This document shows positions 1 to 43,232 of a stretch of 64,000 nt of DNA, piece after piece. The position numbers and the translations under genes were made by a program. Under the pieces are notes generated by a model. That model ran no database searches. It had not been told where the DNA came from and worked only from the letters and a program-made list of their open reading frames with translations. The DNA is from Escherichia coli. GTDB lineage: Bacteria; Pseudomonadota; Gammaproteobacteria; Enterobacterales; Enterobacteriaceae. The stretch's first letter is position 1. Each line of letters begins with the position of its first letter. Location: NCBI RefSeq assembly GCF_044324875.1, contig NZ_CP172185.1. One strand, 5' to 3'.

Positions 1-1199
1 CCGTGCTGCCGGTGGCGCTCTGGCATGTGAAGCGGATTGGTTGTGTGTTTATATTCATGTGTGCTGCGCGGATGTTGCGCCACACACTGCCCCTTGTGCC
101 AGAGCTGTACCACCGACTGCCCCGCCTTCAGTGACAGACGCTGACCGACCAGTTCGTGTGGAACGGAGTACCAGTGACGGGCATATTCAACGTGGTAGTC
201 AGGGCCAACCTTCACAGCTTTGTATTCCGTGTATTCATAAGGTGCCAGAGGCAGCGGAGAGAGTGCTGGCGCATCCAGTATGCGGAAGCGTTCTGCACGG
301 GTTTGATTGCCGTACCCCTTCATTGGCCGGTTATTCATGTCTGTCAGTAACTCCCTAAGGCGCGCATTCAGCGCCCTGAGCGTGTGGAAGGTTTCATTAC
401 GGATGCGGGCAAGAAGCCATCGTTCAACGATGAGGACGCCGTTTTCTGCTTTTGGTTTATCTTTAGGTTTGCGTGGTCGGGCCGGGATGATAACCGTGCC
501 ATAGTGCTCAGCCAGTGCCTGATAACTGTCGTTGATGACAGGCTCATATCGATCGGCCTTTTTCACTGCGCTTCTGAGGTTATCGGGGATGAGCAGCTTC
601 GGTACGCCGCCCAGGAAGGTCAGGCAACGGCTGTGGGCATTTAACCATGACATCATGTCCTGACCTTCGCACGCTTCAACGTAGGTATAGTTGGACGCCC
701 CCATTACGGCCACGAAGATTGCCACGCGGCGTATCTCACCGGTGTCCGGATTAATAACAGGAACCGTAGGACCACAGAAGTCGATAAAAAGCTTTTCGCC
801 GGCACGATGCTCCTGGCGCATGGAGAGACGTCGCGTTTTTTTCCACTCCCGGTAGCAACGGCAGAAGTGCGAGTATCCCATCGCTTTGTTACCCGCCTGT
901 GCCTTGTATTCCATCCACAACAGTTGCCGCGTCACACCTGGTTTTCTCATTTCCGTATCGAAGTACAACATGTCAGGCATTACAAGCTCTGATGCAAAGG
1001 TGTCTTTGGGCGGAAAAATGAGTTTCTCCAGCGTGTCATGGGATATATCAGCAGGTAATGGCCATGACAGAGAAGAGGCTTTGAAGCGGGCAAGAACCTC
1101 AAAAACGGTTGAGGCGCTGATGTGTAACGTCAGTCCGATACAACGGTTAGTCAGCTTCTTGTCGAACTTGAGCTGAAGGATCTTAAAACAGGTTTCCAT
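1..1199 (-). CDS. istA: IS21-family transposase IstA, C-terminus beyond window edge
   Basis: Minus-strand ATG at 1197-1199 (METCFKILQL...), HTH-like N-terminus, ...MGYSHFCRCYREWKK... and ...PRKPKDKPKAENGV... resembling the IstA DDE region; frame open to position 1. Not in the supplied ORF track because no stop lies in the window. Confidence 0.75.
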   Translation of the reverse strand, partial: METCFKILQLKFDKKLTNRCIGLTLHISASTVFEVLARFKASSLSWPLPADISHDTLEKLIFPPKDTFASELVMPDMLYFDTEMRKPGVTRQLLWMEYKAQAGNKAMGYSHFCRCYREWKKTRRLSMRQEHRAGEKLFIDFCGPTVPVINPDTGEIRRVAIFVAVMGASNYTYVEACEGQDMMSWLNAHSRCLTFLGGVPKLLIPDNLRSAVKKADRYEPVINDSYQALAEHYGTVIIPARPRKPKDKPKAENGVLIVERWLLARIRNETFHTLRALNARLRELLTDMNNRPMKGYGNQTRAERFRILDAPALSPLPLAPYEYTEYKAVKVGPDYHVEYARHWYSVPHELVGQRLSLKAGQSVVQLWHKGQCVAQHPRSTHEYKHTTNPLHMPERHRQH

Positions 1200-1310
1200 A
1201 GTGCTCCTGGATTTTCTCTTTCTGGACATTGACGTCTCCACTGGTTTAAACACGGCAATGGAGACTGTGGTGAAAAGAGTTAATTCCCGGAGTGACTGGC
1301 AGGATGCCAA

Positions 1311-1431
1311 TCAATGATCGGAAGCATGCCAAATCGTGATCGATTGTGATGCCAAACTGTGATCGGAGATGGATGCCAAATCATGATCGATTCGAATGCC
1401 AAACTGCGATCGATTCAGATGCCATTTTGCA
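1311..1431. repeat. IS21-type terminal multiple direct repeats (about 22-bp period)
   Basis: Units atgccaatcaatgatcgga / catgccaaatcgtgatcga / gatgccaaactgtgatcgg / gatgccaaatcatgatcga / aatgccaaactgcgatcga / gatgccattttgca read directly. Confidence 0.7.
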
Positions 1432-1569
1432 GTTCCCCGTTCTTTACATTCAGGCACTTCCGTTTCCTTTAACGTTTTCGTTACTCTCTGAAGCTTGTGG
1501 TATCTGTGATGGCTGATTCCTGCCGTCATACTGCGAAATTCCGGATATCAGACCGTGGAGGATTCTGCC

Positions 1570-2142
1570 ATGCAACGCTGGTTTCTGCCTTTTCTTTCGA
1601 CTCTGTTGCTGTTACAGGGTTGTGTTGCCGCTGCGCTGGTCGGTACGGCTGCTGTGGGTACTAAAGTGTCAGTGGACCCCCGAAGTGCTGGAACGCAGAT
1701 TGATGATGAAATTCTGGAAGCAAGGGTCAGCCGTGTGCTGTCGAAGGACTCACAACTCAGGGGGGATGCGCGAATCATCGTCACAGCATACCAGGGCACT
1801 GTACTGCTGACAGGGCAGGTACCAGACCGTAGTGAAGGTGAAAAAGCCCGTCAGATTGCAGATGGTGTTGAGGGGACTGTGCAGGTATGGAATGAAATAA
1901 GGACGGGAAAACCACTTCGTGCTGATAAAACAGCTACTGATGCGTGGCTGACCACAAAAATCCGGGCACAGTTACTGAAGAGCAGCAGGGTGAAACTGTC
2001 AGATGTTAAGGTACTGACGGAGAATGGTGAAGTCTTTCTTATGGGGAGAGTTACAGAGAAGGAAGGACAGGCTGCAGCTGATATCGCCAGTCGCGTGGCG
2101 GGGGTGAAACACGTCATCACCGCATTCAGTTATATACGCTGA
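1570..2142 (+). CDS. BON-domain lipoprotein, DolP/YraP-like paralogue
   Basis: GGAGG RBS 8 bp before ATG 1570; lipobox LLLQGC; recalled strong similarity to E. coli YraP/DolP (CVAAA.VGTAAVGT..., TENGEVFLMG..., AAADIASRV.GVK). Confidence 0.8.
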   Translation: MQRWFLPFLSTLLLLQGCVAAALVGTAAVGTKVSVDPRSAGTQIDDEILEARVSRVLSKDSQLRGDARIIVTAYQGTVLLTGQVPDRSEGEKARQIADGVEGTVQVWNEIRTGKPLRADKTATDAWLTTKIRAQLLKSSRVKLSDVKVLTENGEVFLMGRVTEKEGQAAADIASRVAGVKHVITAFSYIR

Positions 2143-2147
2143 GTATG

Positions 2148-2170
2148 GAGAGCCCGTTCGTTCGGGCTCT
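2148..2170. terminator. Hairpin between convergent genes (bidirectional terminator candidate)
   Basis: gagagcccg-ttcgtt-cgggctct followed by T-rich tgtattt; lies between the DolP-like (+) and YebF-like (-) genes. Confidence 0.45.
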
Positions 2171-2188
2171 GTATTTAGCTTCATTCGT

Positions 2189-2542
2189 TCATCCCTGGCG
2201 TTGCCAGGTGGCACTTCCGTTCTTACAGTCAACGCTCACACGGTACTGAATATCTGCTTTCTTTCCACGGGCAGTGAGATGCACTGTGATGACATTATCA
2301 CCTTTATTTACCGGCTCACGAAGATTCACCCAGACAACGGGACGCTGCTGACCGAGAATTTCCTGGTCATCTTTCCACTGAAACACCTGTTTCTGGAGAT
2401 AGTCCCGTTTGACGCTGGCTGCAACAGCTGATGCTTCCTGTCCTTCACATCGTGGAAAACTGACGGTTCTGTTTTTTTCAGCGGCCAGTGATGATGCGCA
2501 GATACCGAAGATGAGCAGAATGGAAGAGAGTGCTTTGTTCAT
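2189..2542 (-). CDS. YebF-family small secreted protein (paralogue)
   Basis: Signal peptide; ...VSFPRCEG...ASVKRDY...VSVDCK... pattern recalled from E. coli YebF. Confidence 0.65.
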   Translation of the reverse strand: MNKALSSILLIFGICASSLAAEKNRTVSFPRCEGQEASAVAASVKRDYLQKQVFQWKDDQEILGQQRPVVWVNLREPVNKGDNVITVHLTARGKKADIQYRVSVDCKNGSATWQRQG

Positions 2543-2857
2543 TTACAGGACCTCCACAGGGGATAGTTTCATTGCGGAGTTACATTTTAACAACGTAAAA
2601 CAGCATTTCCCGTAACAATCCTCACATAACGTCTTATCCCGTCACTTCCCGTTTCACATGGACAGAACAGTCTGTTTTTTAACCCGTTTTTTCAGTCATT
2701 TCCATAAACAAATCTTCGCTGACGATAAATCTTTTTTCTGCTTAATGATCGATTTTGTCGATCGATACGATATGTACAATTCATTTTACCAATGAGAAAT
2801 CCGTCTTAAAATTGGACAAATTCATATGTCTGAAGGAAACATCAGGAGAGGTGGATT

Positions 2858-3601
2858 GTGAAAAAGTTACTGGCACTCACTGCGGTAGCTGCGCTTACCG
2901 GTACGTTTTCAACGCTGACGCTGGCAGATGCGGATAAAACCGGTTTCTATATCACGGGTAAGGCTGGTGCATCTGTTATCACTCAGGATAATCAGCGCTT
3001 TAGTCAGGACTTTGGGGATGATGTTTATAAGTATAAAGGCGGTGACAAGAGCGATACGGTTTTTGGTGCTGGCCTTGCGGTGGGATACGACTTTTATCAG
3101 CACTACAATGTCCCTGTACGCACGGAAGTTGAATTCTATGGTCGCGGCTCTGCGAATTCCCGCTATCCACTGGATACATGGGAGTCCCCATTTGGAGATA
3201 GTGGCCGGGAAGACACACAAAACAGGCTCAGCGTGAATACCCTGATGGTGAACACGTATTATGATTTCCGAAACAGCAGTGCTTTCACTCCGTGGGTATC
3301 AGCCGGACTGGGCTATGCGCGGGTACATCATAAGGCAACATACACCGATACCTACTGGAATAAATCAGGCGAAGTAAGTACTTCTGCATTACATTACTCG
3401 GGATATGATAACAATTTCGCATGGAGCCTTGGTGTTGGCGTGAAATATGATGTCACTCCGGATTTCAGTCTTGACCTTGCTTATCGCTATCTTGATGCAG
3501 GTGATTCAACCCTGACGTATAAAGACGGGCAGGATACATATAAATCCTCTGTTGATGTCAGAAGTAACGAATTTACGTTAGGCGCTACATACAGCTTCTG
3601 A
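2858..3601 (+). CDS. tia: Tia/Hek/Hra1-family outer-membrane beta-barrel protein (invasin/adhesin type)
   Basis: Signal peptide, FYITGKAGASV, RTEVEFY, SVNTLMVNTYYDFRNSSAFTPWVSAGLGYARVHHK, NFAWSLGVGVKYDVTPD, LDLAYRYLDAGDS, C-terminal ...TYSF; adjacent to a leoCBA-like operon as in the ETEC tia island (recalled). Confidence 0.6.
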   Translation: MKKLLALTAVAALTGTFSTLTLADADKTGFYITGKAGASVITQDNQRFSQDFGDDVYKYKGGDKSDTVFGAGLAVGYDFYQHYNVPVRTEVEFYGRGSANSRYPLDTWESPFGDSGREDTQNRLSVNTLMVNTYYDFRNSSAFTPWVSAGLGYARVHHKATYTDTYWNKSGEVSTSALHYSGYDNNFAWSLGVGVKYDVTPDFSLDLAYRYLDAGDSTLTYKDGQDTYKSSVDVRSNEFTLGATYSF

Positions 3602-3612
3602 ATGTAATATCT

Positions 3613-3651
3613 GACTACACGTTGTTAAATTCAAAATCGCAGCGTGTAGTC
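3613..3651 (+). terminator. Long-loop hairpin downstream of tia-like gene
   Basis: gactacacg ... cgtgtagtc inverted repeat (9-bp stem, 21-nt loop) followed by tgatttgatagttt. Confidence 0.3.
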
Positions 3652-3687
3652 TGATTTGATAGTTTAATACAACAGACAGGTACCTTC

Positions 3688-3882
3688 ATGGCACTTCCTC
3701 AGCCCCCGGTTACGTTCATTTGTACCAGATGTAAGTGGCGTAAAACCATTGTCCATATGGGATGTACTACTGGATTTTCACATTGTCCTCAATGTGGCAG
3801 TAATTCGGTAAAACGGGAAAATGCTGGTGTTGTTACTTCATTATTTTCCTCCCTTTCATCCGTTTTCATGAAAAAATCCTGA
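3688..3882 (+). CDS. Small zinc-ribbon-like protein (CxxC...CxxC), hypothetical
   Basis: 64-aa ORF with CTRC ... CPQC pairs; directly upstream of the leo-like operon. Confidence 0.3.
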   Translation: MALPQPPVTFICTRCKWRKTIVHMGCTTGFSHCPQCGSNSVKRENAGVVTSLFSSLSSVFMKKS

Positions 3883-3983
3883 CTGCTGTTATTTTTATAT
3901 TGCTGGTACTTTATTAAAATCCGCTAAGGTTTTGTATCAGAAATAATTCTCAGACAGTAATCGTCATTCCATTCCGGGGATTT

Positions 3984-4652
3984 ATGAATACGAAAGAACA
4001 ATTCAACCAGCTTTATGATGATATCAGTAATCAGATACGCCAGACTGTGAATGATATTTCGCAACTGAGTGTTGAGAATGAAAAAGGACAGATACATCTC
4101 AATAAAATACGGGAACAACTACAGGCATTACATGATAACTTCAATCATAAGCTGGATTACCTGAAGGAGCATGCCGAATGGGACAGGTTTACTGTCGCTT
4201 TTTTTGGCGAAACGAATGCTGGTAAAAGTACCATAATTGAGTCGTTGAGAATATTATTTGATGAAACAACCCGTCGTGAATTCCTGAATAATAATCAAAA
4301 AGATTTACAAAAGTCAGAACAGGAGTTAAGTAAAAACCTGGAACAGTTAAGCCATGATTTGGAATGCGTTTATGGTGATATTGTCGATAAATTCCGTGAC
4401 ATTAGTTTGTCTGTCATGCAGTTACGACAAATTGTTGCTGATGAGAGCGCATTACGTATAAAAATGGAAGAAGATGAAAAGAATGCCCGTCTCCTTACAG
4501 AACAGAATGAAAGTCAGGCCCGGCTGAATATTTTACAGCAACAGACGAATACCAAAGCACGTTTCAGATTATTTGTGACGGCAATTATCAGCATGATTGT
4601 GGGAGGATGTGGATTTCTGTTGCTGAATCAAGTATTCGGGAGCTTACAATGA
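3984..4652 (+). CDS. leoC: LeoC-like: P-loop (G1) fragment of a split dynamin-like protein with C-terminal TM segment
   Basis: GETNAGKST Walker A/G1, coiled-coil-like middle, hydrophobic C-terminus; stop TGA overlaps the next ATG (ATGA at 4649-4652). Confidence 0.55.
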   Translation: MNTKEQFNQLYDDISNQIRQTVNDISQLSVENEKGQIHLNKIREQLQALHDNFNHKLDYLKEHAEWDRFTVAFFGETNAGKSTIIESLRILFDETTRREFLNNNQKDLQKSEQELSKNLEQLSHDLECVYGDIVDKFRDISLSVMQLRQIVADESALRIKMEEDEKNARLLTEQNESQARLNILQQQTNTKARFRLFVTAIISMIVGGCGFLLLNQVFGSLQ

Positions 4653-6373
4653 GTAATATTCCATGTTCTGCAGATAATAATCCGGAAAAATATCCGGAAA
4701 CTGTCTGTCAGGAATATAATTGCACAGGCGGCGCGGATGATATCAGGTTCTTTTTTAAAAAAAGTCTGGAGCGTACTGTTAGTTCCGTTATCCGGACCGA
4801 AACATTAAGAAATACTGCAAAACGTGTGGATGGCCTGATCATCGGAACCGGTGAGGCTGATTTTACCAAAGACAACACACACTATAATTTACGCATTGAC
4901 GATAAAGATTTTCAGTTGATTGATGTTCCGGGTATTGAAGGTAATGAAACCTGCTACACACATCTTGTTAAAAAAGCCATTGCGCAGGCTCATCTGGTGG
5001 TTTACGTCAACGGTACCAATAAAAAGCCTGAAACAAGCACCGCAAAGAAGATCAAATCTTATCTGGAATATGGCACTCAGGTTTATCCGTTGATCAATGT
5101 ACGCGGTTATTCTGATGACTATGAATTTGAGGAAGATCGTGTCGCTCTCGAACAACAGGGTAGGGGCGGTGAGGCTTTATGCCAGACTGTTGGGGTGCTC
5201 GCTTCCGTATTAGGGGCGGATGTGTTGCTGAATGGGAACTGTGTACAGGGATTACTGGCATTTTCAGCGTTGGCTTATGACGACAATACACACAGAACAA
5301 CCATTCATCCGTTACGTGATCGAAATCTGGCGGTATATCAACGTGGTTTTTTTAATGTATTTCCTTCCCGTCAGGAAATGCTGACATTCAGCCAGATTGA
5401 TGCCGTCGCTCAGACAATTAAAAATAAGGTCGCAACGTTCCGTGAGGATATTATCGAAAGTAATAAATATAAAGTTCGTGAGACTCTGGATCAATACTTA
5501 CAGGTACTTGAAGAGCAATTAAACAGCCATCACTGCTTTTTACAAAAGACAATACCGGAATTTGAAAAATGCCGGACTGCGTTCAAAAATGCGACTGGTG
5601 AATTTGAACGCCGTATTGCGAACAGTCGTCGCAATCGCTGGAATAGCCTTTTTAATGACCTAGGGAATGCCTGTGATGGTATTGTCGAACATAATTTTGG
5701 TGACAGCAGTGCTATTTCCACACTGATACGTAATGAGTATGAAAAGCGCCGTAAAATGATGGAACAAATGATGCAGGAGGATACTGAAGAGAGTGTAAAG
5801 GTATTACAAGAGCAAACTCTTCAGGCGGTAAATCGTTTGCTGGAAGATATTCACAATGTGGAACTTCAACACCCCCTCAGTTTTGCTAACAGCCGCAGCA
5901 TCGAGTTTAGTGGAGAGATGGTACCTGGTTACGAGCTGGGGATGGCTGATTTCAGTTCAATGGTTTTAAAAATTGGCAGCTATGCAATGTCAGGCAGTGC
6001 AATTGGCAGCATCTTTCCCGTTATTGGTACGCTTGTTGGCTCTGCGGTTGGTGCGTTGCTTGGCATAATAATGACTATTGCGGGTATTTTTACCAGTAAA
6101 GCGTCAAAAATCCGCAAAGCACAAGGAAAAATACGCAACAAGCTGGAGGAAGTGCGGGATAAATCTCTCTGCAGCATACCTGATGAAACCCGCCTCCTGG
6201 TTGCAGCTATTGAAAAAGAACTTGAGTGTGGCCTGCTGCAAAAACTCAACGATATGCAGGTGGATCTGCAACAGCCTGTTGCCATATTCGAAACTCAAAT
6301 CAGTCGAATCACAACATTAAAGAAACAATTGGAGAAAATGCCTTATGGAACAATTCAAACAGTTCAGTATTGA
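4649..6373 (+). CDS. leoB: LeoB-like: remainder of the split dynamin-like protein
   Basis: Translationally coupled to the upstream gene; DVPGI (G3-like) motif; long helical regions and hydrophobic stretch near C-terminus. Confidence 0.55.
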   Translation: MSNIPCSADNNPEKYPETVCQEYNCTGGADDIRFFFKKSLERTVSSVIRTETLRNTAKRVDGLIIGTGEADFTKDNTHYNLRIDDKDFQLIDVPGIEGNETCYTHLVKKAIAQAHLVVYVNGTNKKPETSTAKKIKSYLEYGTQVYPLINVRGYSDDYEFEEDRVALEQQGRGGEALCQTVGVLASVLGADVLLNGNCVQGLLAFSALAYDDNTHRTTIHPLRDRNLAVYQRGFFNVFPSRQEMLTFSQIDAVAQTIKNKVATFREDIIESNKYKVRETLDQYLQVLEEQLNSHHCFLQKTIPEFEKCRTAFKNATGEFERRIANSRRNRWNSLFNDLGNACDGIVEHNFGDSSAISTLIRNEYEKRRKMMEQMMQEDTEESVKVLQEQTLQAVNRLLEDIHNVELQHPLSFANSRSIEFSGEMVPGYELGMADFSSMVLKIGSYAMSGSAIGSIFPVIGTLVGSAVGALLGIIMTIAGIFTSKASKIRKAQGKIRNKLEEVRDKSLCSIPDETRLLVAAIEKELECGLLQKLNDMQVDLQQPVAIFETQISRITTLKKQLEKMPYGTIQTVQY

Positions 6374-8078
6374 AAAACTGGCTGCGATTAATTCGCTATC
6401 ACAGTTGCGCGGAATGTTAGAAATGTTGGGAGATTTGGGGATAGACATCAGTGACGATTTACAAAAAATTACTTATGCAATTAATTCCATCGAATCTGAT
6501 GTTCTGCGTATTGCTTTGTTGGGGGCGTTTTCTGATGGCAAAACCAGCGTTATCGCTGCATGGATGGGTAAGATAATGGATGATATGAATATTTCCATGG
6601 ATGAGTCCTCTGATCGGTTGAGTATTTACAAACCGGAAGGTCTGCCAGACCAGTGTGAAATTGTTGATACACCCGGGCTGTTTGGTGATAAAGAGCGTGA
6701 GGTGGACGGGAAACAGGTGATGTATGAAGACCTGACCAAACGCTATATATCTGAAGCTCATCTGATTTTATACGTGGTTGATGCCACTAACCCGCTAAAG
6801 GAGAGCCACAACGACATCGTAAAATGGGTATTGCGCGATTTGAATAAACTCTCTTCAACCATTTTTGTTATCAATAAAATGGATGAAGTGACTGATCTGA
6901 CAGAGCAGGCGCTGTTTGACGAGCAGGCAGCAATTAAAAAGGCGAATCTTAAAGGTAAATTGCAGCGTGCAGCTGCTCTTACCGCTCAGGAGTGTGATCA
7001 GCTAAATATCGTCTGCATTGCTTCAAACCCAAACGGTCGTGGCTTAACGTACTGGTTTGATAAACCAGAACATTATGAAAGTCGTTCGCGCATTAACGAT
7101 CTTAAAAATGCTGCCACCGACATACTGAAAACTAATGTGCCAGAGGTATTGTTAGCGAAAACAGGTATGGACGTGGTGAAAGATATTGTCATTCAGCGTG
7201 CCACCCAGGCAAGCAGACAGTTCGATGAACTGAATCTGTTTGTTGAGAAGAATGACGAGGACATGTGTCGTTTTCAGAACGACATTAAGCAAAGTCGCAT
7301 TGAGGTTAAACGGCTGGCCGGAGAGTTATTTGAAGAGCTGAACCTGATGGAAAAAAAGCTGATGAGTCAACTGCGTTCACTCGATCTGGACGATATCCGC
7401 CCGTTTATGGACGATGAGCTGGGATATACAGAAGATGGGGTTGGCTTTAAGCTTCATCTGCGCATTGAGCAGTCAGTTCATCGTTTTTTCGAACAGTCGA
7501 AAGCGGTCTCGCAACGCTTATCTGATGATATCACTTGTCAGTTGAGCTCCAGCGAGAGCTTTCTAAGTGGCTTAGGCGAAGGCGCATTTCGTTCTTTAGG
7601 CGGGACCTTTAAGGGAGTGTCGAAAATTAGTCCGGCGACGCTCAAAACGACTATTTTGACCGCACGCGATACGATTGGCAAACTAACGGGATATACCTAT
7701 AAATTTAAACCCTGGGAGGCCACGAAACTGGCCGGAAGCATTTCCAAATGGGCTGGTCCTGTGGGTGCAGTGTTTACGATTGGTTCTGATCTATGGGATG
7801 CCTATAAAGCACACGAGCGGGAGCAGGAGCTGAAAAAAGTAAAAGAATCGCTGGCGAAAATCATTAAAGAGCAGTTTGAATATATCTATGACGTACTGAG
7901 TTCTGATGAGAAAATATTCGCCTTTTTTGCACCGCAGATCCAAAAAATGGAGCAGGTTGTTACTGAGCTGGCAGAGAAAAGCCAGGCTATTCGCGACAAC
8001 CGGCAGAAACTGAGCATTATTCAGACGCAGCTTGCACAACTAATGGTTCCAGCCACAGAAAACCATACTGTCAGATAG
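6345..8078 (+). CDS. leoA: Bacterial dynamin-like GTPase, LeoA-like
   Basis: G1 GAFSDGKTS, G3 DTPGL, G4 NKMD in order; 577 aa; overlaps the end of the upstream gene (operon). Confidence 0.75.
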   Translation: MEQFKQFSIEKLAAINSLSQLRGMLEMLGDLGIDISDDLQKITYAINSIESDVLRIALLGAFSDGKTSVIAAWMGKIMDDMNISMDESSDRLSIYKPEGLPDQCEIVDTPGLFGDKEREVDGKQVMYEDLTKRYISEAHLILYVVDATNPLKESHNDIVKWVLRDLNKLSSTIFVINKMDEVTDLTEQALFDEQAAIKKANLKGKLQRAAALTAQECDQLNIVCIASNPNGRGLTYWFDKPEHYESRSRINDLKNAATDILKTNVPEVLLAKTGMDVVKDIVIQRATQASRQFDELNLFVEKNDEDMCRFQNDIKQSRIEVKRLAGELFEELNLMEKKLMSQLRSLDLDDIRPFMDDELGYTEDGVGFKLHLRIEQSVHRFFEQSKAVSQRLSDDITCQLSSSESFLSGLGEGAFRSLGGTFKGVSKISPATLKTTILTARDTIGKLTGYTYKFKPWEATKLAGSISKWAGPVGAVFTIGSDLWDAYKAHEREQELKKVKESLAKIIKEQFEYIYDVLSSDEKIFAFFAPQIQKMEQVVTELAEKSQAIRDNRQKLSIIQTQLAQLMVPATENHTVR

Positions 8079-8190
8079 ATGCATAATGCAGTTCCGTACA
8101 TCCGAATTTGAATAACGAATACTCTTTCAGAACTATCTGGATTGAAAGGATGCCTTCTGCTAATCATCGGAAATATGGCTTACTTAAGAC

Positions 8191-8400
8191 ATGAGGGATA
8201 AATCAGTGAGATTATTGTTAAAGGGACTGACTGGAATGGTTATGGCCTGGTTGGTGATCTATTTTGGTATGAAATTATTTTTTCTCACAGATCAGATTCA
8301 TCCGGCATTAAGAACTCTTGTCATGCTGGGGATGTTATTTATGTTGATAATGATTCCCTGTGTAATATGTGGTTCTTTTTTACGAAAGAGGCAGAAATGA
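8191..8400 (+). CDS. Small membrane protein (two predicted TM helices), hypothetical
   Basis: 69-aa ORF, hydrophobic segments, basic C-terminus. Confidence 0.3.
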   Translation: MRDKSVRLLLKGLTGMVMAWLVIYFGMKLFFLTDQIHPALRTLVMLGMLFMLIMIPCVICGSFLRKRQK

Positions 8401-8485
8401 TAATTCGTCCTGTAATAATGACGAATCAACAAGAAAAATTGATGCATAAGAATGATACATATACTTATCTGTATTAAAGGATGAT

Positions 8486-8971
8486 TTGATGAACATAAAA
8501 AATATTTTTCTGTTTCTTTTTTTTAGTTTATTAGCAGGTAATGCCTTTGCTGCTGCAACAGTGATGGGGTATTGTGAACTGAAGAATGGAAAAACGCTTT
8601 CTGTATGGGCTGGTGATAATGGAAGTTATAATTATACTTTATATGGCAAAAGTGGGACGACAGAGTTACAGCTAAAAGAAGGATTGTTTGGCGTCAGAGC
8701 TTTTCACTATTATCATTCCATACGTGATGGAGTGGGAGCGTTCAAGTACCTCCGGTTTAATAAAGGTGAATATGATTATGTTGTCATGTCGTATGAGGAT
8801 GGTCGTTCCCCCTATTTTGATGGTGTGATAGTATTCAGAAATGGAAACCGAATTGCTCGTCTCGAATGTGCCCATCCATTTACAGGAGCATTTTCTGTTG
8901 AAGAACTGGATGCAGGACATAATCAGGACAGTGAAGATATGGCTGAATATATTATGAGTAATTTTACCTGA
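8486..8971 (+). CDS. Secreted protein of unknown function
   Basis: N-terminal signal peptide (FLFLFFSLLAGNAFAAA); no recognised motif. Confidence 0.5.
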   Translation: MMNIKNIFLFLFFSLLAGNAFAAATVMGYCELKNGKTLSVWAGDNGSYNYTLYGKSGTTELQLKEGLFGVRAFHYYHSIRDGVGAFKYLRFNKGEYDYVVMSYEDGRSPYFDGVIVFRNGNRIARLECAHPFTGAFSVEELDAGHNQDSEDMAEYIMSNFT

Positions 8972-9105
8972 ATATAATAAATTTAAATATATCAGAATAT
9001 TTTCTGACGATATTGCAATGAAAACTGAATATAATTTTCAGTGGATGAGAAAAACGGACTGATGAAATTATGGTTCTCAGTCCGTTTCATCATAAACTTT
9101 ATCAA

Positions 9106-9870
9106 TCAATCCAGTGTGATTTCTGCAGCCAGTTCTTCTGAGTCTGCATTTGCTATTTTGCTACGTAAGACTGCAACATAAATTACGGCAGGTATTGTAA
9201 CCCTGTAGGCTGTACCACCAACATCCACAAGAGTCCAGATTGCGGTAATCGCCCATCCTACAGGACCAGTTAATACAGCCATTGTTCTGGTCAAAATAGT
9301 ATTACCGGCAAAACTTAATCCTCTTCCGATTAAAGCTTTTAAAATAGCATTAGCCATAATTAATGTAAGCTGATACGATTTGAATCCACCTGCTTTAAAT
9401 ATGAACTGGAATGTTGAAACAAGTGCTTTCGGTGTAAGCCCATCGAGTTTTTTTACACCAATCTCTCGCGCAAATTCTTTCAGTTCATCATCACTCATTT
9501 TTTCAAATGCATCATTGAGTATTTTCAACATGAGGCATTGTTCTATATTTTCAATTGTGCTATTTTTGTTATAGTTAACTTTTAGTTTATCACAAACATC
9601 GGTAAGCACCTCTCTGTATTTAACACCTCGTCCTCCTCTGAGAAGTGTCGCAAAAGTATTACCGCCAAAGCATTGAATTTCAGCTGCAATTTCTCGCCAG
9701 TACTTACTGTGCTGAGGATTATATCTTTTGTAATATTCATTTCCAGAAAGTTCTTCAGTAAAGCGTTTCTTTCCGTCCTTATCATATATTAAGCAATCAA
9801 CCAAATCATTCAGTTCTGCATCAGAACATTTTGATAAAAACTCAAGGTCTTCATCATAACGATATGCCAT
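9106..9870 (-). CDS. YaaW/UPF0174-family protein
   Basis: C-terminal ...GPVGWAITAIWTLVDVGGTAYRVTIPAVIYVAVLR... recalled as characteristic of the YaaW family. Confidence 0.55.
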   Translation of the reverse strand: MAYRYDEDLEFLSKCSDAELNDLVDCLIYDKDGKKRFTEELSGNEYYKRYNPQHSKYWREIAAEIQCFGGNTFATLLRGGRGVKYREVLTDVCDKLKVNYNKNSTIENIEQCLMLKILNDAFEKMSDDELKEFAREIGVKKLDGLTPKALVSTFQFIFKAGGFKSYQLTLIMANAILKALIGRGLSFAGNTILTRTMAVLTGPVGWAITAIWTLVDVGGTAYRVTIPAVIYVAVLRSKIANADSEELAAEITLD

Positions 9871-11051
9871 AAAATTTCCTATTTAAAGGTCAGGTGTTAA
9901 TGCTGACATGCGATTTTGAGACGTATAAATAGTCCTTGTCTATTATATTCTTATCAATTTTATTTTCAATGTTTTTATCTTCTTTTTATACACTCTTAAA
10001 AAGAACCGATTTTATTACCTGAGCATGTAATGTAAAAGTATATGTGTGATGATTAAAGTTTTTATCCTTATTTTTCCTGTAAGGACGAGCTTTCCGTGGT
10101 TGCTGTTCTCGTATGTATGCGGGGTATTACTTTCACTAATGGTTAAAATTCTTTCCTTCCGGTTAAAGCATTCATGTGTTTGTATTTTTCTTTGCTATTT
10201 GTTTTTTAGTACAGAATTTAATTAGTGTGGTTGTGATTTTTGTTGATATCACCACGCGCATTTTATATGAAATAGCCACATAACTTTCAACAAAATATAA
10301 AAATAAAATTATGCTATAGTAAACAACAGATTTTTATGTTTATGAAAGATGACCACTTTTTTAATTTGACTGAATTTTTTAAGATGCTTTTGAGTTGTGA
10401 AATATATTTTTCTTTATTGCTTTTTGGAATGTTGACGGGGCGTAGTTATGATTAATATAACAGAAGTTTCAGGAACGCTTTTTTCTTTTAAATGCCTGCG
10501 CATGACTTGTTCAATAATGTGTTTTCATCATATTTTTTTGGCATCAATACAATAATTAAAGATATAACGTTAAAATATTATTTATTGGCTTTTCCTGATG
10601 GAGTAAAAACAAATGTAACAACTAACTGCATGATAAATAAGTAGAATGGTCAGTATCATGTATATTATTTGGGTATAAGTGGTATTTGTAAAGAATCAGT
10701 TGTGTTACTCCGGAATATATCTCTTTGAGAGAGCAGAAGTGAAACAGATATTCTCTTGAAAGTATTGCATTATCGTTACCGTTTTTATATCAGAGGCTGA
10801 AAATACGTATTTTTATAAACAGGGTGGAGGCATTTTTGTGTTATGTATGGATTTTCAAACCGGGTGAATCATCCAGACAGGTAATAATATAATAAGAAAT
10901 GTTGCTGCCAGGCTAAAACAGGAACGTGTACTTCTGTGAAAATGTTGATGCGAAGCTACCATTATTTGGGGTAGGGTATCTTCGCTCATCAGATGATATT
11001 GAATATGGTCGCCTGAAATCAGAAATTAAAAAATACAAATGGTAGTTAACT

Positions 11052-11078
11052 CCCCACCAACCGCTGTGGTTGGTGGGG
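11052..11078 (-). terminator. Perfect 11-bp-stem hairpin immediately downstream of int, followed by a G8 tract
   Basis: ccccaccaacc-gctgt-ggttggtgggg, then gggggggg; T-run only 15 nt further on the minus strand, so not a canonical intrinsic terminator. Confidence 0.3.
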
Positions 11079-11087
11079 GGGGATGGC

Positions 11088-12281
11088 TTATTTCGTTTGT
11101 ACGTTTTTCTCCATAAGTGAATCAATGTAATCAGCGTACCACTGCATCATTTCACGACGTCCATCGAGATACAGGGCATGATTATAGGTACCCCTGATGG
11201 AGTTTTTATCCACATGCGCTAACTGCATTTCAATCCAGGCAGAATTAAAGCCCTGTTCGTGCAGAATTGTGCTCATTGTGTGACGAAAACCATGGCCGGT
11301 TGCTCTGCCATCGTAACCGATGCGTTTTAGTACCATATTGATGCTGGCTTCACTCATCGGTTTGTTAACATCGCAACGTCCGGGGAATATAAGGCGATAC
11401 TGCCCGGTAAAACGATGCAATTCCTGCAGCAGTGAAATGGCCTGGCGTGACAGAGGAACAATATGATGCCTGCGCATTTTCATTCGCTCTTCAGGGATAT
11501 GCCAGAGTGCGTTGTCAGAATCAATTTCTGACCATTCGGCCAGCCGCAATTCAATCGTTCTGAGTCCGGTCAGCATCAGCAGGCTCGTCGCCATACGGGT
11601 GACAGGACTGCCATGATAGTCAGCGAGCTTCCGGAGAAAAACAGGAAGTTCATCCGCTCTCAGATGGGGAAAATGTGCGGTTTTTGGTGCCGCCAGCGTA
11701 CTGGTCAGTTCTGATGCAGGATTGACAGTGGCACGTCCTGTGGCAATGGCATAACGGAAAATCTGATTGCAGTATTGACGGACCTTGCGTAATTTTTCCA
11801 GAGAGCCACGTTTTTCAATACGACGCAAAATCTCCAGCATTTCCAGCGGGAGGATATCAGTCACGCTCCGGTTGCTCAGATACGGGAAAACGTCTTTATC
11901 CAGCGCTTCCAGTACGCTTCTGGCGTAACTGTCAGACCATGATAAAGATTTATGATGATGCCATTCCATTGCGAGAGCATGAAAGGTGTTGGTGACAGAG
12001 ATTTTCTGAGAGAGTTTTTCCCTTCGCTTCTTTTCACCGGGATCTCCACCCTCGGATATAATTTTTCGTGCATCGTCGCGTCTGGTTCTGGCTTCAGCAA
12101 GGGAGACGTCAGGATAGACGCCGAGGGACAGTTTTTTCTCCTTTCCTGCTGTTCTGTACTTAAGGCGCCAGTAGCGTGCTCCCGTGGTTTTTACCAGCAG
12201 ATATAAACCACGTTCATCAGAAAGTTTATAATCTTTGTCTTTAGGTCTTGCCGTTTCGACCTGTCTGGCTGTAAGTGCCAT
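11088..12281 (-). CDS. int: P4-type tyrosine integrase
   Basis: MALTARQVETARPKDKDYKLSDERGLYLLV...RYWRLKYR...KLSLGVYP N-terminal domain typical of P4/CP4-57 IntA integrases; RBS-supported ATG at 12281; adjacent to tRNA-derived att. Confidence 0.9.
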   Translation of the reverse strand: MALTARQVETARPKDKDYKLSDERGLYLLVKTTGARYWRLKYRTAGKEKKLSLGVYPDVSLAEARTRRDDARKIISEGGDPGEKKRREKLSQKISVTNTFHALAMEWHHHKSLSWSDSYARSVLEALDKDVFPYLSNRSVTDILPLEMLEILRRIEKRGSLEKLRKVRQYCNQIFRYAIATGRATVNPASELTSTLAAPKTAHFPHLRADELPVFLRKLADYHGSPVTRMATSLLMLTGLRTIELRLAEWSEIDSDNALWHIPEERMKMRRHHIVPLSRQAISLLQELHRFTGQYRLIFPGRCDVNKPMSEASINMVLKRIGYDGRATGHGFRHTMSTILHEQGFNSAWIEMQLAHVDKNSIRGTYNHALYLDGRREMMQWYADYIDSLMEKNVQTK

Positions 12282-12457
12282 ATGGGGGCCCCTTAAACTG
12301 ACCGAACACAATGAGCCCCCAAATGTGCCCCCATTTAATGCTTGATTCAGGGGGTGTTCAATAGAATTCGGTGGAGTTCAAAATGTCCGGAACGATTATA
12401 AATCAGTGATTATACATGAATTTCGTGGAGTGCGGGGGATGTGTGTAGAAGTGAAGG

Positions 12458-12507
12458 TGGTGCCCTGACTCGGAATCGAACCAAGGAAACGGGGATTTTC
12501 AATCCCC
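12458..12507 (-). other. att core: 50-nt copy of the 3' end of tRNA-Phe (no D-arm or 5' acceptor strand), not a full tRNA gene
   Basis: Minus-strand read GGGGATTGAAAATCCCCGTTTCCTTGGTTCGATTCCGAGTCAGGGCACCA matches the anticodon arm to CCA end of E. coli tRNA-Phe (recalled) with 2 mismatches; upstream sequence does not fold as a tRNA. Confidence 0.75.
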
Positions 12508-12558
12508 GTGCCATAATTGGCTGTGTCAGTTGGTTACACACCATTGAGGTGTGTACTA

Positions 12559-13437
12559 ATGAAAATACTGCCCGTTGTCTCCACAAAAGGTGGCGAAGGT
12601 AAATCAACACAATCCGCAAACCTGGCTGGTTTTCTCGCCGATGCAGGTATCCGTACCCTGCTGATTGACGGAGATCATGCTCAGCCCACGGCAAGCAACA
12701 TCTTTCCGCTGACATATGAAGCGTCAGCCGGTCTTTTTGAGTTGCTGATGCGCACGGCTGACCTCAGTCATCCCGATAACATCATTTCCCGCACGGCTAT
12801 CGACGGACTCGATCTGATAGTCTCCAATGACCCTCATGAGCAGTTAAAAACTGCGATGCTTCACGCCCCGGATGGTCGTCTGCGCCTCCGGAATGTCCTG
12901 CAGCATCCGCTTTTTCTGAACAACTACGATGTCATTGTAGTTGATTCTCAGGGAGCACGTTCTGTCATGCTCGAAATGATTGTGCTGTCGGCCACTGATT
13001 CGGTTGTCGGGATGGTCAATCCGGTACTCCCTGATGTGCGCGAGTTTATTCGGGGCACTGTCAATGTTATGGAGAACCTGCTGCCTTACCGGGAGCTGGG
13101 GATACCCCTGCCGAAAGTACGCACGCTGGTTAACTGCATGGATTATACGGCACTGGCCAGGAAGACGCTGGATGAGCTGGCCGGAATTATTCAGACCGGT
13201 CGTTACAGCAGACAGTTACCTGAAGGTGCGGTTTCCCTTCTTTCCACACAGATTTACGACCTGAATATTTACAAGCAGGGGCATGCGGCTGGTCAACCCG
13301 TACATCGTCTCGAAAAAGAATCCACACGTCGCAGTGATTCCGCGCTTGTCACGATGCACAGCCTGGCCTGTGAACTCTTTCCTGAGTGGAAACAGGCGTT
13401 TGACGGGCTGCTGGCGAACGGGGGAATACGTCAGTGA
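12559..13437 (+). CDS. parA: ParA/Soj-family partition ATPase of the ICE
   Basis: Deviant Walker A VVSTKGGEGKST; first gene after att, as in pKLC102/PAPI-1-type elements. Confidence 0.85.
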   Translation: MKILPVVSTKGGEGKSTQSANLAGFLADAGIRTLLIDGDHAQPTASNIFPLTYEASAGLFELLMRTADLSHPDNIISRTAIDGLDLIVSNDPHEQLKTAMLHAPDGRLRLRNVLQHPLFLNNYDVIVVDSQGARSVMLEMIVLSATDSVVGMVNPVLPDVREFIRGTVNVMENLLPYRELGIPLPKVRTLVNCMDYTALARKTLDELAGIIQTGRYSRQLPEGAVSLLSTQIYDLNIYKQGHAAGQPVHRLEKESTRRSDSALVTMHSLACELFPEWKQAFDGLLANGGIRQ

Positions 13438-34261: not shown

Positions 34262-35043
34262 ACGTTTCATTTACTGAACAGGTGCAGAGGGATATGCCGC
34301 AATGGGCGAATGACCCGTTACTGGCATGGGATGCCACCGCGTTTGCGGCAATGTCGGATTTTATTACAGAGCACTACTGGACGGGACAGGGCAGCATCAA
34401 TGTGTTCCGCATTGTGGGAACTGACCATCCACAGTATGCCGGAATGACCTGGCTGGAGCTGCTGGAGCGCGGTAACCGTATGGACATCAATATCCCGTTA
34501 CTGGAAAAAAATCCGGGATACTACACGCAGGCAGAGCAACAGCATGCCGGGATGAGTTTTGTCAGCACGGATGGCGTTGACTGGTATGTCAGTACAGACG
34601 GCAATCACCGCAGTTGCCTGGCACGCTTTCTGTTTCACCTGCAGGGGGAGGAGCGCACACAGCTTCACAACGTGGCACAGAGTATTTATCACACAGACCG
34701 GGCGTTCTGGTCTGCCTGCCGGGAAATCCACAACCTGACTGACGCGCTGTCCCGGCATGGTGTATATATCCGTCTGCAGATCCGACGGCAGTGTGTTGCC
34801 CGCGAAGACCTGGCCTGCTGGAAAGTGGACCGTTTCAGCACAGAGGCGCAGCTGACAGTGGATGACGTGCGTGCCGGCGGACATGATATGCCTGCGGTGT
34901 ATAAGACGTTGCTGCTGAATGCGGCAGACGCATGGCGTGAGGTGATGGTATTACAGCGCAGACTGGAGGCGCTGTCTGCATCACCGGGGAACGATTTGCC
35001 ACGCACATGGTGGCGACGTCTTTTACGGAAGGGGGACATGTAA
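34258..35043 (+). CDS. Hypothetical ICE protein
   Basis: GTG start 34258 after GAGAAAGGAG; frame chosen for coupling to traD (TAATG overlap at 35041-35045). Confidence 0.5.
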   Translation: MNVSFTEQVQRDMPQWANDPLLAWDATAFAAMSDFITEHYWTGQGSINVFRIVGTDHPQYAGMTWLELLERGNRMDINIPLLEKNPGYYTQAEQQHAGMSFVSTDGVDWYVSTDGNHRSCLARFLFHLQGEERTQLHNVAQSIYHTDRAFWSACREIHNLTDALSRHGVYIRLQIRRQCVAREDLACWKVDRFSTEAQLTVDDVRAGGHDMPAVYKTLLLNAADAWREVMVLQRRLEALSASPGNDLPRTWWRRLLRKGDM

Positions 35044-37160
35044 TGAGCAACCGCTATGTCATTGAGGCATTGCTGAGACCGGCTGTGGAGTTCAATACGG
35101 CAGTGGTGGCAGCAACAGCAGCATGTATCTGTGTGACAGCCCCCTGGGCGGTGGCGCTGGCACCCACCGTCAGTTACGCCACTGCCGGTGGATTTGCCCT
35201 GCTGGCCGTGGTGCGTTTCCGGCAGGGGATGAACATCATCCGGTATCGCCGTAATCTGCGCCGGCTGCCCCGCTATGTGATGAGTACACGGCAGATCCCG
35301 CTCAGCCGTCAGCGGCTGTTTCTGGGGCGGGGATTTCGCTGGACCCAGAAGCATACCCAGCGTCTCCAGGATACGCTGCGACCGGAGGTGGCACACTATC
35401 TGCAGCCGGGCGGACTTTACCGGCTGGCGCGCTGGCTGGAAATGAAAACGGAACACCGTCTGCCCGCGCTGGGGAAACTGCTCCGGCATGAGTCGTCGCT
35501 GAATCCTGTGCGTCCTCTGCCGCCGGTGGGGGGAAATCCCGCCCTGCATGGTATTGAGCCGGATGAACAGGATGTGACGCTGGCTCTGGGGGAGCGTGTG
35601 GGGCATACCATTGTCTACGGCACCACCCGTGTCGGTAAAACCCGCCTGGCAGAACTGCTGGTCACTCAGGATATTCGCAGGGGAGAGGTGACCATTGTTT
35701 TTGATCCCAAAGGTGATGCTGATCTGCTGCTGCGTGTCTGGGCGGAAGCACACCGTGCCGGGCGGGGTGATGAACTGTATATTTTCCATCTGGGATGGCC
35801 GGAAATTTCGGCCCGATATAATGCGGTGGGACGCTTCGGGCGTGTTTCGGAAGTGGCTTCCCGTGTGGCCGGGCAGTTGTCCGGTGAAGGGAACTCGGCG
35901 GCTTTCCGCGAGTTCGCCTGGCGGTTCGTCAACATCATTTCCCGCGCCCTGGTGGCACTCGGTGAGCGCCCGGACTACCTGCTGATTGTGCGGTATGTGA
36001 ACAACATAGCCGATCTCTATATCCGCTATGCCGGAAAGGTGATCCGCGAGCGCATGCCGGAACTGGAGCAGGCGATTGCGAATAACCAGAATGTGATCAG
36101 CGAGGAGGATGTTCCCCGCACCATGCAGAACCAGCCGGATGCGGTACGTATCTGGTCCATCGAGATGGCCCTGAGCAGTGAGGAGGGTAAAAAAATTTAC
36201 GATCCGATCCTGGACGGGCTTCGCAGTGCGGTCCGCTATGACCGTACCTATTTTGACAAAATCGTGGCGTCCCTGCTGCCGCTGCTGGAAAAACTCACCA
36301 CGGGCAGGATCGCAGAGCTGCTGGCACCGGACTATCTGGACATGAACGATGCGCGACCGATTTTTGACTGGGAACAGGTGATCCGTAAAAAGGCGGTGGT
36401 CTATATCGGCCTGGATGCACTCAGCGACAGTGTGGTAGCCAGTGCTGTGGGGAATTCGATGTTTGCGGACCTGGTGAGCGTGGCGGGGCATATCTACAAG
36501 CACGGCATGCATGCCGGTCTGCCCGGTAAGGGGGAAGGCAAAAATGTGGTGAACCTGCACTGCGATGAGTTTAACGAACTGATGGGGGATGAGTTTATTC
36601 CGCTCATTAACAAGGGGGGCGGTGCCGGTATGCAGGTCACCGCGTACACCCAGACATCGTCAGATATTGAAGCGCGTATCGGTAATGCAGCCAAAACGGC
36701 GCAGGTTCAGGGAAACTTCAACAACATGATCATGCTGCGTGTCAGGGAGAACAGGACGGCAGAGCTGCTGACCACACAACTGCCTCAGGTGGAGATCTAC
36801 ACCAAGACGCTGGTCTCCGGTCACCAGGATACGGCGGACGTGTCTGCCGGTCAGGATTTCACGTCCAGCACCCAGGATCGTGTCGGCACGGTGAAGGTAC
36901 CTCTGCTGGAGCCGTCAGATATTGTCACCCTGCCCAAGGGACAGGCGTTTGCCCTGCTGGAAGGGGGGCAGCTGTGGAAAATCCGGATGCCGCTGCCGGC
37001 AGGGGATACGGATGACGTGCTGATGCCGGAGAACATTGCCCGGGTGGCAGAGGCGATGAGACAGAACTATCACACCGGTGAAGGATGGTGGAATGAGCCG
37101 CCGTCAGCGCAGGCCGCCGGAACAGATGAAGGAGGCGGATATGGCGGAAGCGCGTCGTGA
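35043..37160 (+). CDS. traD: Type IV coupling protein TraD (ICE type)
   Basis: Two N-terminal TM helices; Walker A ...TIVYGTTRVGKTRLAEL...; about 700 aa. Confidence 0.85.
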   Translation: MSNRYVIEALLRPAVEFNTAVVAATAACICVTAPWAVALAPTVSYATAGGFALLAVVRFRQGMNIIRYRRNLRRLPRYVMSTRQIPLSRQRLFLGRGFRWTQKHTQRLQDTLRPEVAHYLQPGGLYRLARWLEMKTEHRLPALGKLLRHESSLNPVRPLPPVGGNPALHGIEPDEQDVTLALGERVGHTIVYGTTRVGKTRLAELLVTQDIRRGEVTIVFDPKGDADLLLRVWAEAHRAGRGDELYIFHLGWPEISARYNAVGRFGRVSEVASRVAGQLSGEGNSAAFREFAWRFVNIISRALVALGERPDYLLIVRYVNNIADLYIRYAGKVIRERMPELEQAIANNQNVISEEDVPRTMQNQPDAVRIWSIEMALSSEEGKKIYDPILDGLRSAVRYDRTYFDKIVASLLPLLEKLTTGRIAELLAPDYLDMNDARPIFDWEQVIRKKAVVYIGLDALSDSVVASAVGNSMFADLVSVAGHIYKHGMHAGLPGKGEGKNVVNLHCDEFNELMGDEFIPLINKGGGAGMQVTAYTQTSSDIEARIGNAAKTAQVQGNFNNMIMLRVRENRTAELLTTQLPQVEIYTKTLVSGHQDTADVSAGQDFTSSTQDRVGTVKVPLLEPSDIVTLPKGQAFALLEGGQLWKIRMPLPAGDTDDVLMPENIARVAEAMRQNYHTGEGWWNEPPSAQAAGTDEGGGYGGSAS

Positions 37161-42827: not shown

Positions 42828-43232
42828 GTGAAACGATTACTGTTCGTGATGAGTGTGGCACTGGTGCTGTCGGGCTGTGCCACCTCTAAAGAAGAGCTGC
42901 TGCCTGCCGGAGAGCAGACGATGCTGGAGCTCTGGCAGGGTAAAACCGCAGGTGGCGGTCAGCGGCATGCGCTGGCCGCCCGGGAAACGTTGCGCCGTCC
43001 CCTTACGGTAACGGAGCAGCAGGGGATGAACGCGGAGGCGTACAGCTACAGCCGGACGCAGGAAAGCGAAATCAGCCAGCAGTTTCCGCGTCTGCCGAAT
43101 CCCGACATGGTGATGTATGTGTTTCCGCATCTGGCCGGCGGTACGTCGCCGGTTCCGGGCTACAGCACGGTATTTCCTTTTTACAGCAGGACGCAGTATG
43201 CGCTGCCAGGTGAGCGTACGGAGGCTCTGTAA
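42828..43232 (+). CDS. ICE conjugal-transfer lipoprotein
   Basis: Lipobox LVLSGC. Confidence 0.55.
   Translation: MKRLLFVMSVALVLSGCATSKEELLPAGEQTMLELWQGKTAGGGQRHALAARETLRRPLTVTEQQGMNAEAYSYSRTQESEISQQFPRLPNPDMVMYVFPHLAGGTSPVPGYSTVFPFYSRTQYALPGERTEAL

Follow-up and report, generated by a model that had tools for sequence, protein, structure and literature searches.

Divergent extra copies of dolP and yebF carried as cargo on Escherichia coli genomic islands

The locus and its flanks

The window analysed here is a stretch of 64,000 nucleotides of Escherichia coli DNA (contig NZ_CP172185.1). Close to its first letter it carries two small genes, here called dolP2 and yebF2, which encode a BON-domain lipoprotein of the DolP family and a small protein of the YebF family. 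An earlier note, made from the letters of the sequence, had placed this pair convergently between an IS21 terminus and a tia-like gene; the open reading frames, together with the extent of the insertion sequence (1–1431) and of the Tia-like gene (2858–3601), bear this out. The features of the region are as follows.

1–1431, minus strand: left portion of an insertion sequence (IS) of the IS21 family, comprising istA and a terminal end with multiple repeats
3–1199, running off the window, minus strand: istA, with rve and Mu-transposase C domains
1303–1431: IS21-family terminal end, with repeated GATGCCAAA...TGATCG terminal motifs as direct repeats
1432–1569, plus strand: 138 bp left over from the conserved sequence that precedes dolP2, including the ribosome-binding site
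1570–2142, plus strand: dolP2, encoding a predicted 190-aa dual-BON outer-membrane lipoprotein, a divergent paralogue (xenologue) of DolP/YraP by PDB, profile and alignment matches
2138–2179, no strand assigned: GC-rich hairpin between the convergent dolP2 and yebF2, likely a shared terminator
2189–2542, minus strand: yebF2, encoding a 117-aa YebF-family protein with a predicted Sec signal peptide and two conserved cysteines, by profile, PDB and alignment matches
2543–2857, no strand assigned: spacer between the divergently oriented yebF2 and tia-like genes, with a mosaic breakpoint at about 2679
2858–3601, plus strand: tia-like gene, encoding a 247-aa outer-membrane beta-barrel (Pfam OMP_b-brl); outside the minimal cassette
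3984–4652, plus strand: leoC, after the RefSeq annotation of strain CM2; context, not cassette
4649–6373, plus strand: leoB, a dynamin-like GTPase gene; context, not cassette
6345–8078, plus strand: leoA, whose product matches PDB 4AUR along its whole length; context, not cassette

Repeated terminal motifs are typical of the IS21 family, and many chromosomes and plasmids of E. coli carry IS21-family copies to which positions 1–1431 are 100% identical. Homology to island relatives in other genomes starts exactly at 1432. The nearest of these relatives is the chicken strain CM2, which is 99.7% identical to the window over 1432–9000. When CM2 is compared with strains AR_0085 and LH50-c, the conserved block reaches about 444 bp upstream of dolP2; about 305 bp of this region has been displaced in the window by the IS21-family element, so that expression of dolP2 may here be weak or aberrant. 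Both genes are intact in the window and have strong ribosome-binding sites, that of dolP2 being a GGAGGA Shine–Dalgarno sequence (1557–1562) located 7 nt 5′ of the ATG of an open reading frame of 190 codons.

The stop codons of the two convergent genes lie 46 bp apart, and the spacer contains the hairpin. Its predicted folding energy is -25.3 kcal/mol (z = -5.64), and none of 200 shuffled sequences was equally stable. This hairpin is likely to be a transcription terminator shared by dolP2 and yebF2; it was missed by a consensus terminator scan because its T-run is short. Scans for sigma-70 promoters and for terminators performed at background level, and no sigma-70 consensus was found upstream of dolP2. 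A promoter-like site was returned at 2785–2812, in the spacer that separates yebF2 from the tia-like gene. Expression of the core dolP gene is sigmaE-dependent. A crude scan for the sigmaE consensus gave no hit upstream of dolP2, nor upstream of K-12 dolP either; a sigmaE promoter candidate picked out by eye upstream of dolP2 was lost in this same scan. No Rfam family matched within positions 1–13000, and no tRNA gene was found within the window. A further ORF of 190 codons, at 54475–55047, was considered as a second DolP copy and rejected, as it has no BON domain.

DolP2 is a divergent member of the DolP family

DolP is a virulence-relevant envelope-integrity factor and belongs to the family of a meningococcal vaccine antigen. 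DolP2 contains the Pfam BON domain (PF04972) in two stretches (117 bits), scores 275.5 bits against the NCBIfam DolP equivalog NF008247, well above the cutoff of 184, and matches the DolP structure PDB 7A2D over residues 19–190 (E = 2e-61). The alignment with K-12-type DolP is free of gaps over 185 aa, with 62% identity, and the two proteins agree in length to within 1 aa. The N-terminus of DolP2 reads MQRWFLPFLSTLLLLQGC followed by VAA; its lipobox (LLQGC), the cysteine predicted to be lipidated and the valine at position +2 are all as in K-12 DolP, and this +2 residue suits sorting to the outer membrane. DolP2 is thus like DolP of K-12 in length, lipobox, the possession of two BON domains, key residues and passage of the equivalog cutoff.

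In DolP, residues C19, Y75, G83, W127, L137 and G160 have been reported to be important, and two of these, W127 and L137, lie in the extended first helix of BON2 (alpha-1), where they are determinants of binding to anionic phospholipid (PMC7806268). In the alignment, DolP2 keeps the equivalents of all six. Within BON2 alpha-1, W126 and L136 of DolP2 align with W127 and L137 of DolP, and K131, R133 and Q135 are also retained. The N-terminal half of the same lipid-binding helix is altered with respect to DolP (G120D, E121K, S123A, N124T and T126A), which suggests that lipid binding or localisation could differ between the two proteins.

The earlier note had called the lipoprotein one that closely resembles DolP. 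Its place in the family stands (NF008247); the closeness was stated slightly generously, because 62% identity is the distance seen between different families of Enterobacterales. For scale, the DolPs of K-12 and Proteus are 65% identical, while DolP2 is 62% identical to the K-12 protein and 56% identical to that of Proteus.

YebF2 belongs with YebF

YebF is a small protein released to the medium via the porins OmpF, OmpC and OmpX. It is widely used as a secretion carrier, and the literature found treats it in that way. YebF2, with 117 aa against 118 aa for the K-12 protein, is 52% identical to K-12 YebF. It scores 96.5 bits on Pfam YebF (PF13995; cutoff 27) and 117.5 bits on NCBIfam NF041240 (YebF_not_Cmi; cutoff 110), and falls below the cutoff of the older PRK13680 equivalog (124.7 versus 147). 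The YebF structure PDB 2LQV is matched with E = 1e-28. By NF041240 and NF008247, respectively, this protein and DolP2 pass the cutoffs of their families, in agreement with the identification of a DolP-like BON lipoprotein and a YebF-like protein, for which secretion is predicted, in the earlier note.

YebF2 and K-12 YebF have in common the AASVKRDY and VDC motifs, the cysteine pair and the signal peptide. When YebF2 is aligned with K-12 YebF, its cysteines C32 and C106 fall on cysteines of the latter; they are predicted to form a disulfide. The N-terminus is hydrophobic and ends in SLA/A, an A-x-A-like site at which cleavage is predicted; it thus resembles the cleavable signal peptide of YebF. 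Matches to the structures of Cmi (4AEQ and 2XGL), the immunity protein against colicin-M-type toxin, are weak (E = 0.013–0.015).

The pair as extra copies

The core dolP of E. coli lies in the order lpoA-yraN-diaA-dolP-yraQ and the core yebF in the order yebE-yebF-yebG-purT. The window shows neither of these contexts: dolP2 is instead on a genomic island, and yebF2 too lies away from the yebE-yebF-yebG-purT neighbourhood. In a sensitive blastn search, core dolP, which has about 70% nucleotide identity to dolP2, was found in 5424 of 5426 complete E. coli genomes, whereas island dolP2 (at least 95% identity) was present in about 18 (18–19) of the same set. The pair as a whole occurs in about 18 of the 5426, mostly from chicken or poultry, as raw counts that ignore kinship between strains, and yebF2-like DNA occurs in 51 complete genomes. 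CM2 contains four places that match the dolP2–yebF2 pair by blastn.

By their non-core contexts and the near-universality of core dolP, dolP2 and yebF2 are extra copies, which coexist with core dolP in the species; for the genome of the window itself, this status rests on a proxy, namely the nearest relative CM2 and the near-universal presence of core dolP. The proposal that divergent extra copies are carried here as island cargo outside their core contexts is accordingly upheld, and the pair does not represent the only dolP and yebF genes in their normal chromosomal neighbourhood. The comparison with chromosomal copies that had been suggested gives 62% identity for DolP and 52% for YebF against K-12, and for the window's own genome it was possible by the same proxy only (CM2 and species-wide dolP).

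The named members of the DolP2 and YebF2 protein clusters are all from E. coli and lie on more than 1000 contigs. In tblastn searches against plasmids, no carriage on genuine plasmids was found, and only core-type dolP and yebF were matched. The sequences concerned are mislabelled chromosomes or chromosome fragments, among them an Enterobacter ‘plasmid’ that carries the normal lpoA-yraN-diaA-dolP context, and hence give no evidence of plasmid carriage. RefSeq already names the island genes ‘dolP’ and ‘yebF’. The literature searched yielded no description of DolP or YebF paralogues on islands, and a review of BON-domain proteins makes no mention of mobile copies.

Origin and selection

Chromosomal DolPs of the Enterobacteriaceae are 84–90% identical to K-12 DolP. 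DolP2 falls outside this range: it is 61–65% identical to all of them, and its long branch in a neighbour-joining tree lies outside the whole group of chromosomal DolPs. Similarly, chromosomal YebFs are 58–87% identical to each other, while YebF2 is only 47–54% identical to them. A collection of 5.8 billion proteins has no member whose identity to DolP2 is between 68% and 98%; for YebF2 the corresponding gap, confirmed by alignment, extends from 58% to 82%. A search by peptide patterns in one genome per GTDB species returned no relatives of YebF2. As judged from these comparisons, both proteins lie outside the chromosomal diversity of Enterobacteriaceae, and no donor was detected. They could have come from a distant, unsampled donor within the Enterobacterales, or could have evolved fast after capture; either origin would fit.

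The two main alleles of dolP2 differ by 13 synonymous and 7 non-synonymous changes (dN/dS 0.15–0.17 at a dS of about 0.09), and no disrupted copy was among the five alleles examined. With a dN/dS of about 0.16, purifying selection acts on dolP2. When YebF2 is compared with a variant of 82% identity, dN/dS is 0.13 at a dS of about 0.7, which indicates that it has been constrained historically. In contrast to YebF of K-12, yebF2 is often a pseudogene in its carriers: it is broken by a stop codon in CM2 and by a frameshift in LH50-c, and solitary yebF2 variants of 88% identity are broken in strains SFE8 and PK8261. The loss of yebF2 in several carriers speaks against strong selection on the role of one half of the cassette, if not more.

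Mosaic islands and the link to tia and leo

The dolP2–yebF2 pair travels as a mosaic block of about 1.55 kb among different E. coli islands, in at least three island contexts. The block common to CM2 and AR_0085 begins 444 bp upstream of dolP2 and ends about 150 bp beyond the tia-like gene. That common to CM2 and LH50-c has the same left end and stops 137 bp upstream of yebF2 (about 2679 in the window; CM2 locus 16248), while CM2 and SFE8 have yebF2 alone in common. The position at about 2679, between yebF2 and the tia-like gene, is thus a mosaic breakpoint at which relatives of the LH50-c and SFE8 types stop matching. The neighbours to the right of the pair differ between carriers.

Window and CM2: tia-like gene, leoCBA, a DUF3944 gene, an integrase gene and an SPI-7-type element
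AR_0085 and CFSAN061770: tia-like gene, EcsC gene and integrase gene, with sitABCD and DoxX to the left
LH50-c: polysaccharide deacetylase gene, GT4 gene, cptA and lpxM

The islands around the pair are littered with IS fragments and pseudogenes. The company that it keeps is envelope-related cargo: sodC, sitABCD, DoxX, the Tia-like porin and modifiers of LPS or lipid A.

In enterotoxigenic E. coli H10407 the tia locus is a five-gene island, tia-leoC-leoB-leoA-orf5, and LeoABC promote the release of vesicles (PMC4159319). The gene order from the tia-like gene through leoA is the same in the window, where the Tia-like protein is 77% identical to an annotated Tia, the leo gene products have DLP_helical and Dynamin_N domains, and LeoA, as listed above, matches 4AUR. 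The leo region of the window has about 88% nucleotide identity to canonical tia–leo loci. These canonical loci, found in hundreds of genomes, differ in that matching to the window starts inside tia, with no dolP or yebF upstream; the window and CM2, on the other hand, have the pair upstream of a 77%-identical Tia variant. The same tia-like allele follows dolP2–yebF2 in 15 complete genomes. Besides the window, however, the full order dolP2-yebF2-tia-like-leoCBA occurs in one of the 5426 complete genomes, that of CM2, so the pair is not a conserved component of tia-leoCBA loci. The G+C content is about 50% in dolP2–yebF2 compared with 38–44% in leo. Variable neighbours, the breakpoint, the rarity of the full order and this difference in G+C together argue that adjacency to tia and leo is island patchwork. 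The suggestion that the pair supports outer-membrane or vesicle functions of the neighbouring tia and leo genes consequently finds the synteny of related islands, with the full order in one of 5426 genomes, against it.

A second mobile clade of DolP

A second clade of DolP paralogues (P0003, P0012 and P0014) is found in E. coli in the cargo region of conjugative elements of the SPI-7 type. Its members are 71–76% identical to K-12 DolP and 64–68% identical to DolP2. A DUF465 gene adjoins them, UvrD, TraI_2 and int genes lie near, and they are situated among anti-restriction, Kiwa and toxin–antitoxin genes. Like DolP2, they are extra, mobile, dual-BON lipoproteins, here of 191 aa, which branch outside the chromosomal clade; unlike DolP2, which is paired with yebF2, they are never next to a yebF gene. 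The existence of a second, independent clade makes ‘mobile DolP’ a recurrent theme.

Interpretation

The pair is real but fairly ordinary island cargo, made up of members of known families. The account that we consider probable, while holding it with some reserve, is that dolP2–yebF2 forms a two-gene accessory cassette of old, horizontally acquired xenologues, in which DolP2 acts in the manner of DolP and YebF2 in the manner of YebF, and whose adjacency to tia and leo stems from mosaicism. DolP2 would be made as an outer-membrane lipoprotein sorted by the Lol system. [quoted passage not shown] Several observations on DolP bear on this. DolP supports BamA and the biogenesis of outer-membrane proteins (OMPs), and when BamA over-accumulates, extra DolP is beneficial in a dose-dependent manner (PMC8081527). 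An E. coli dolP deletion is complemented by DolP homologues as distant as that of Neisseria (PMC7806268). Given this complementation and the effect of dose, a DolP2 of 62% identity is likely to add DolP capacity. YebF2 is probably exported by Sec, disulfide-bonded and released in the way of YebF; since the gene is so often a pseudogene, it appears to be dispensable. The position of the pair beside the tia-like gene, leoCBA and the IS21 end would be due to island mosaicism and IS insertion, with no functional unit at the level of an operon.

An alternative that deserves some weight, while being rather unlikely, is that both genes are neutral hitch-hikers, the decaying remnants of a donor chromosome or of an older island, kept by linkage. 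The pseudogenes of yebF2 in several lineages and the abundance of IS fragments and pseudogenes in the surrounding islands would fit such decay, as would an IS21-family element 138 bp upstream of a dolP2 gene for which no recognisable promoter was found. Decay is harder to reconcile with dolP2 itself, intact in five of five alleles, with critical residues retained and a dN/dS of about 0.16 at a dS of about 0.09, or with the dN/dS of 0.13 that YebF2 shows over a dS of about 0.7; nor would it explain why the block has been kept across at least three island contexts and more than 1000 contigs. It is unlikely, too, that the pair is a functional accessory of the Tia-like porin and LeoABC, in which DolP2 would assemble or stabilise the barrel or the vesiculating membrane and YebF2 would be a cargo or carrier released through it. 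Such a partnership would draw together genes that all relate to the outer membrane, the aid that DolP gives to BamA and OMP biogenesis (PMC8081527) and the promotion of vesicle release by LeoABC (PMC4159319), and it would suit the 15 complete genomes in which one tia-like allele follows the pair. The linkage to leoCBA, however, recurs in a single genome out of 5426 besides the window, and in that genome, CM2, the only one to share the full arrangement, yebF2 is a pseudogene. The pair is absent from hundreds of canonical tia-leoCBA loci, is found with the tia-like gene and without leo in AR_0085 and CFSAN061770, and elsewhere does without the tia-like gene as well, beside deacetylase, GT4, cptA and lpxM genes; both the breakpoint between yebF2 and the tia-like gene and the differing G+C separate it further from these partners.

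Two other readings concern one protein each. DolP2 might have a new role that benefits a mobile element, such as the buffering of envelope stress from conjugation or secretion, or a surface change that bears on phage or exclusion. The independent DolP clade in SPI-7-type cargo among anti-restriction, Kiwa and toxin–antitoxin genes points circumstantially in this direction, as do the long branch of DolP2 and the altered first half of its lipid-binding helix. We regard this as distinctly improbable, given that the core determinants of DolP are kept, that distant homologues can stand in for one another in E. coli (PMC7806268) and that DolP2 lies outside the backbone of the conjugative element. 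It is more improbable by far that YebF2 serves in the periplasm as an immunity protein of the Cmi kind, directed against a toxin of the colicin M type. Speaking for it are the structural homology of Cmi with YebF and the weak matches of YebF2 to 4AEQ and 2XGL (E = 0.013–0.015). The match to YebF (1e-28 for 2LQV, against about 1e-2 for Cmi) is much stronger, the profile NF041240, which was built to separate YebF from Cmi, is passed, the N-terminus with its SLA/A site is like the cleavable signal peptide of YebF, and no ColM-like toxin gene was present in any context examined.

Wider meaning

For the study of virulence islands, the case of dolP2–yebF2 illustrates that adjacency in mosaic islands is a poor guide to function. 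Because annotation pipelines give them the names ‘dolP’ and ‘yebF’, the island copies could be confused with the core genes in studies of the pan-genome or of essentiality. As mobile paralogues that are diverged yet constrained, they are natural variants from which one can read where DolP and YebF tolerate substitution; the lipid-binding helix is an example, being variable in its first half and constant at W127 and L137. On a more speculative note, and doubtful as we consider it, the capture of DolP paralogues by mobile elements of E. coli may be a repeated event, and an extra copy could buffer the stress placed on BAM and the outer membrane by element-encoded OMPs and by secretion or conjugation machinery, in which case dolP2–yebF2 would be a mobile envelope-homeostasis cassette that is of advantage in the gut of birds or in niches outside the intestine. 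The mobile paralogues of DolP and YebF hint, more generally, that mobile elements may tune the homeostasis of the outer membrane.

Conjugative element and flanking regions

Most of the window (12517-54000) is taken up by an integrative conjugative element of the SPI-7/PAPI-1 type, which encodes ParA, dnaB-PI and ParB. No tRNA genes were found in the whole 64,000-nt window. Features of the element and of the adjoining integrase are as follows.

Integrase and conjugation genes
11088-12311, minus strand: P4-type integrase, directly adjoining parA
35007-37160: coupling protein
43232-46081: TraC-like ATPase

Amid the conjugative-transfer genes lies a complete TonB-dependent receptor gene with Plug and barrel domains (46620-48707), so that the mobile cargo includes a further outer-membrane protein. 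The ~1.1 kb that separate the DUF3944 gene from the integrase (9900-11050) have a very low G+C content of 29-33% and contain no ORFs of at least 120 aa. The far end of the window (55641-58879) holds a defence and addiction cluster, in which a repeated ‘LLLVACC’ motif occurs inside an ORF at 57928-58341.

Defence and addiction genes
55641-56813: endonuclease with GmrSD_N and HNH domains
56829-57983: EcoRI-type adenine methyltransferase
58212-58879: ccdA/ccdB pair

Between yebF2 and the tia-like gene, the intergenic region carries TGATCGATTTTGTCGATCGAT (2740-2775), which resembles TGATCGAT, the core of the IS21-family terminal repeats (1303-1431). This likeness could be due to chance, or could be the relic of an older IS end.

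A second clade of DolP paralogues

Extra DolP paralogues of E. coli also form a second clade, separate from DolP2, whose members share 71-76% identity with K-12 DolP and 64-68% with DolP2.

Second-clade DolP paralogues in other E. coli genomes (coordinates local to each locus)
L006, 8001-8576
L007, 6687-7262
L016, 8001-8576
L017, 834-1409

SPI-7-type conjugative elements carry these genes in their cargo region, always with a DUF465 gene immediately upstream. ArdC-like, DUF1281, Kiwa and TacAT genes are among their neighbours, with UvrD, TraI_2 and integrase genes close by.

yebF2 outside the window

Solitary yebF2 variants (82-88% nt) are in the majority pseudogenes. In two unrelated strains they are adjoined by an AbgT-family transporter gene (L011:9006-10352 and L021:3391-6354) and, in strain SFE8, by cybC; this AbgT/cybC neighbourhood may represent an older context of the yebF2 lineage. 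Downstream of the SFE8 variant, the deacetylase, GT4 and PEtN-transferase genes known from strain LH50-c recur as pseudogenes. In LH50-c (L010:11961-16754), the dolP2-yebF2 block is followed, in place of the tia-like gene, by genes for a polysaccharide deacetylase and a GT4 glycosyltransferase, by cptA and by an additional lpxM; in this set, too, the island cargo consists of paralogues of the envelope housekeeping type.
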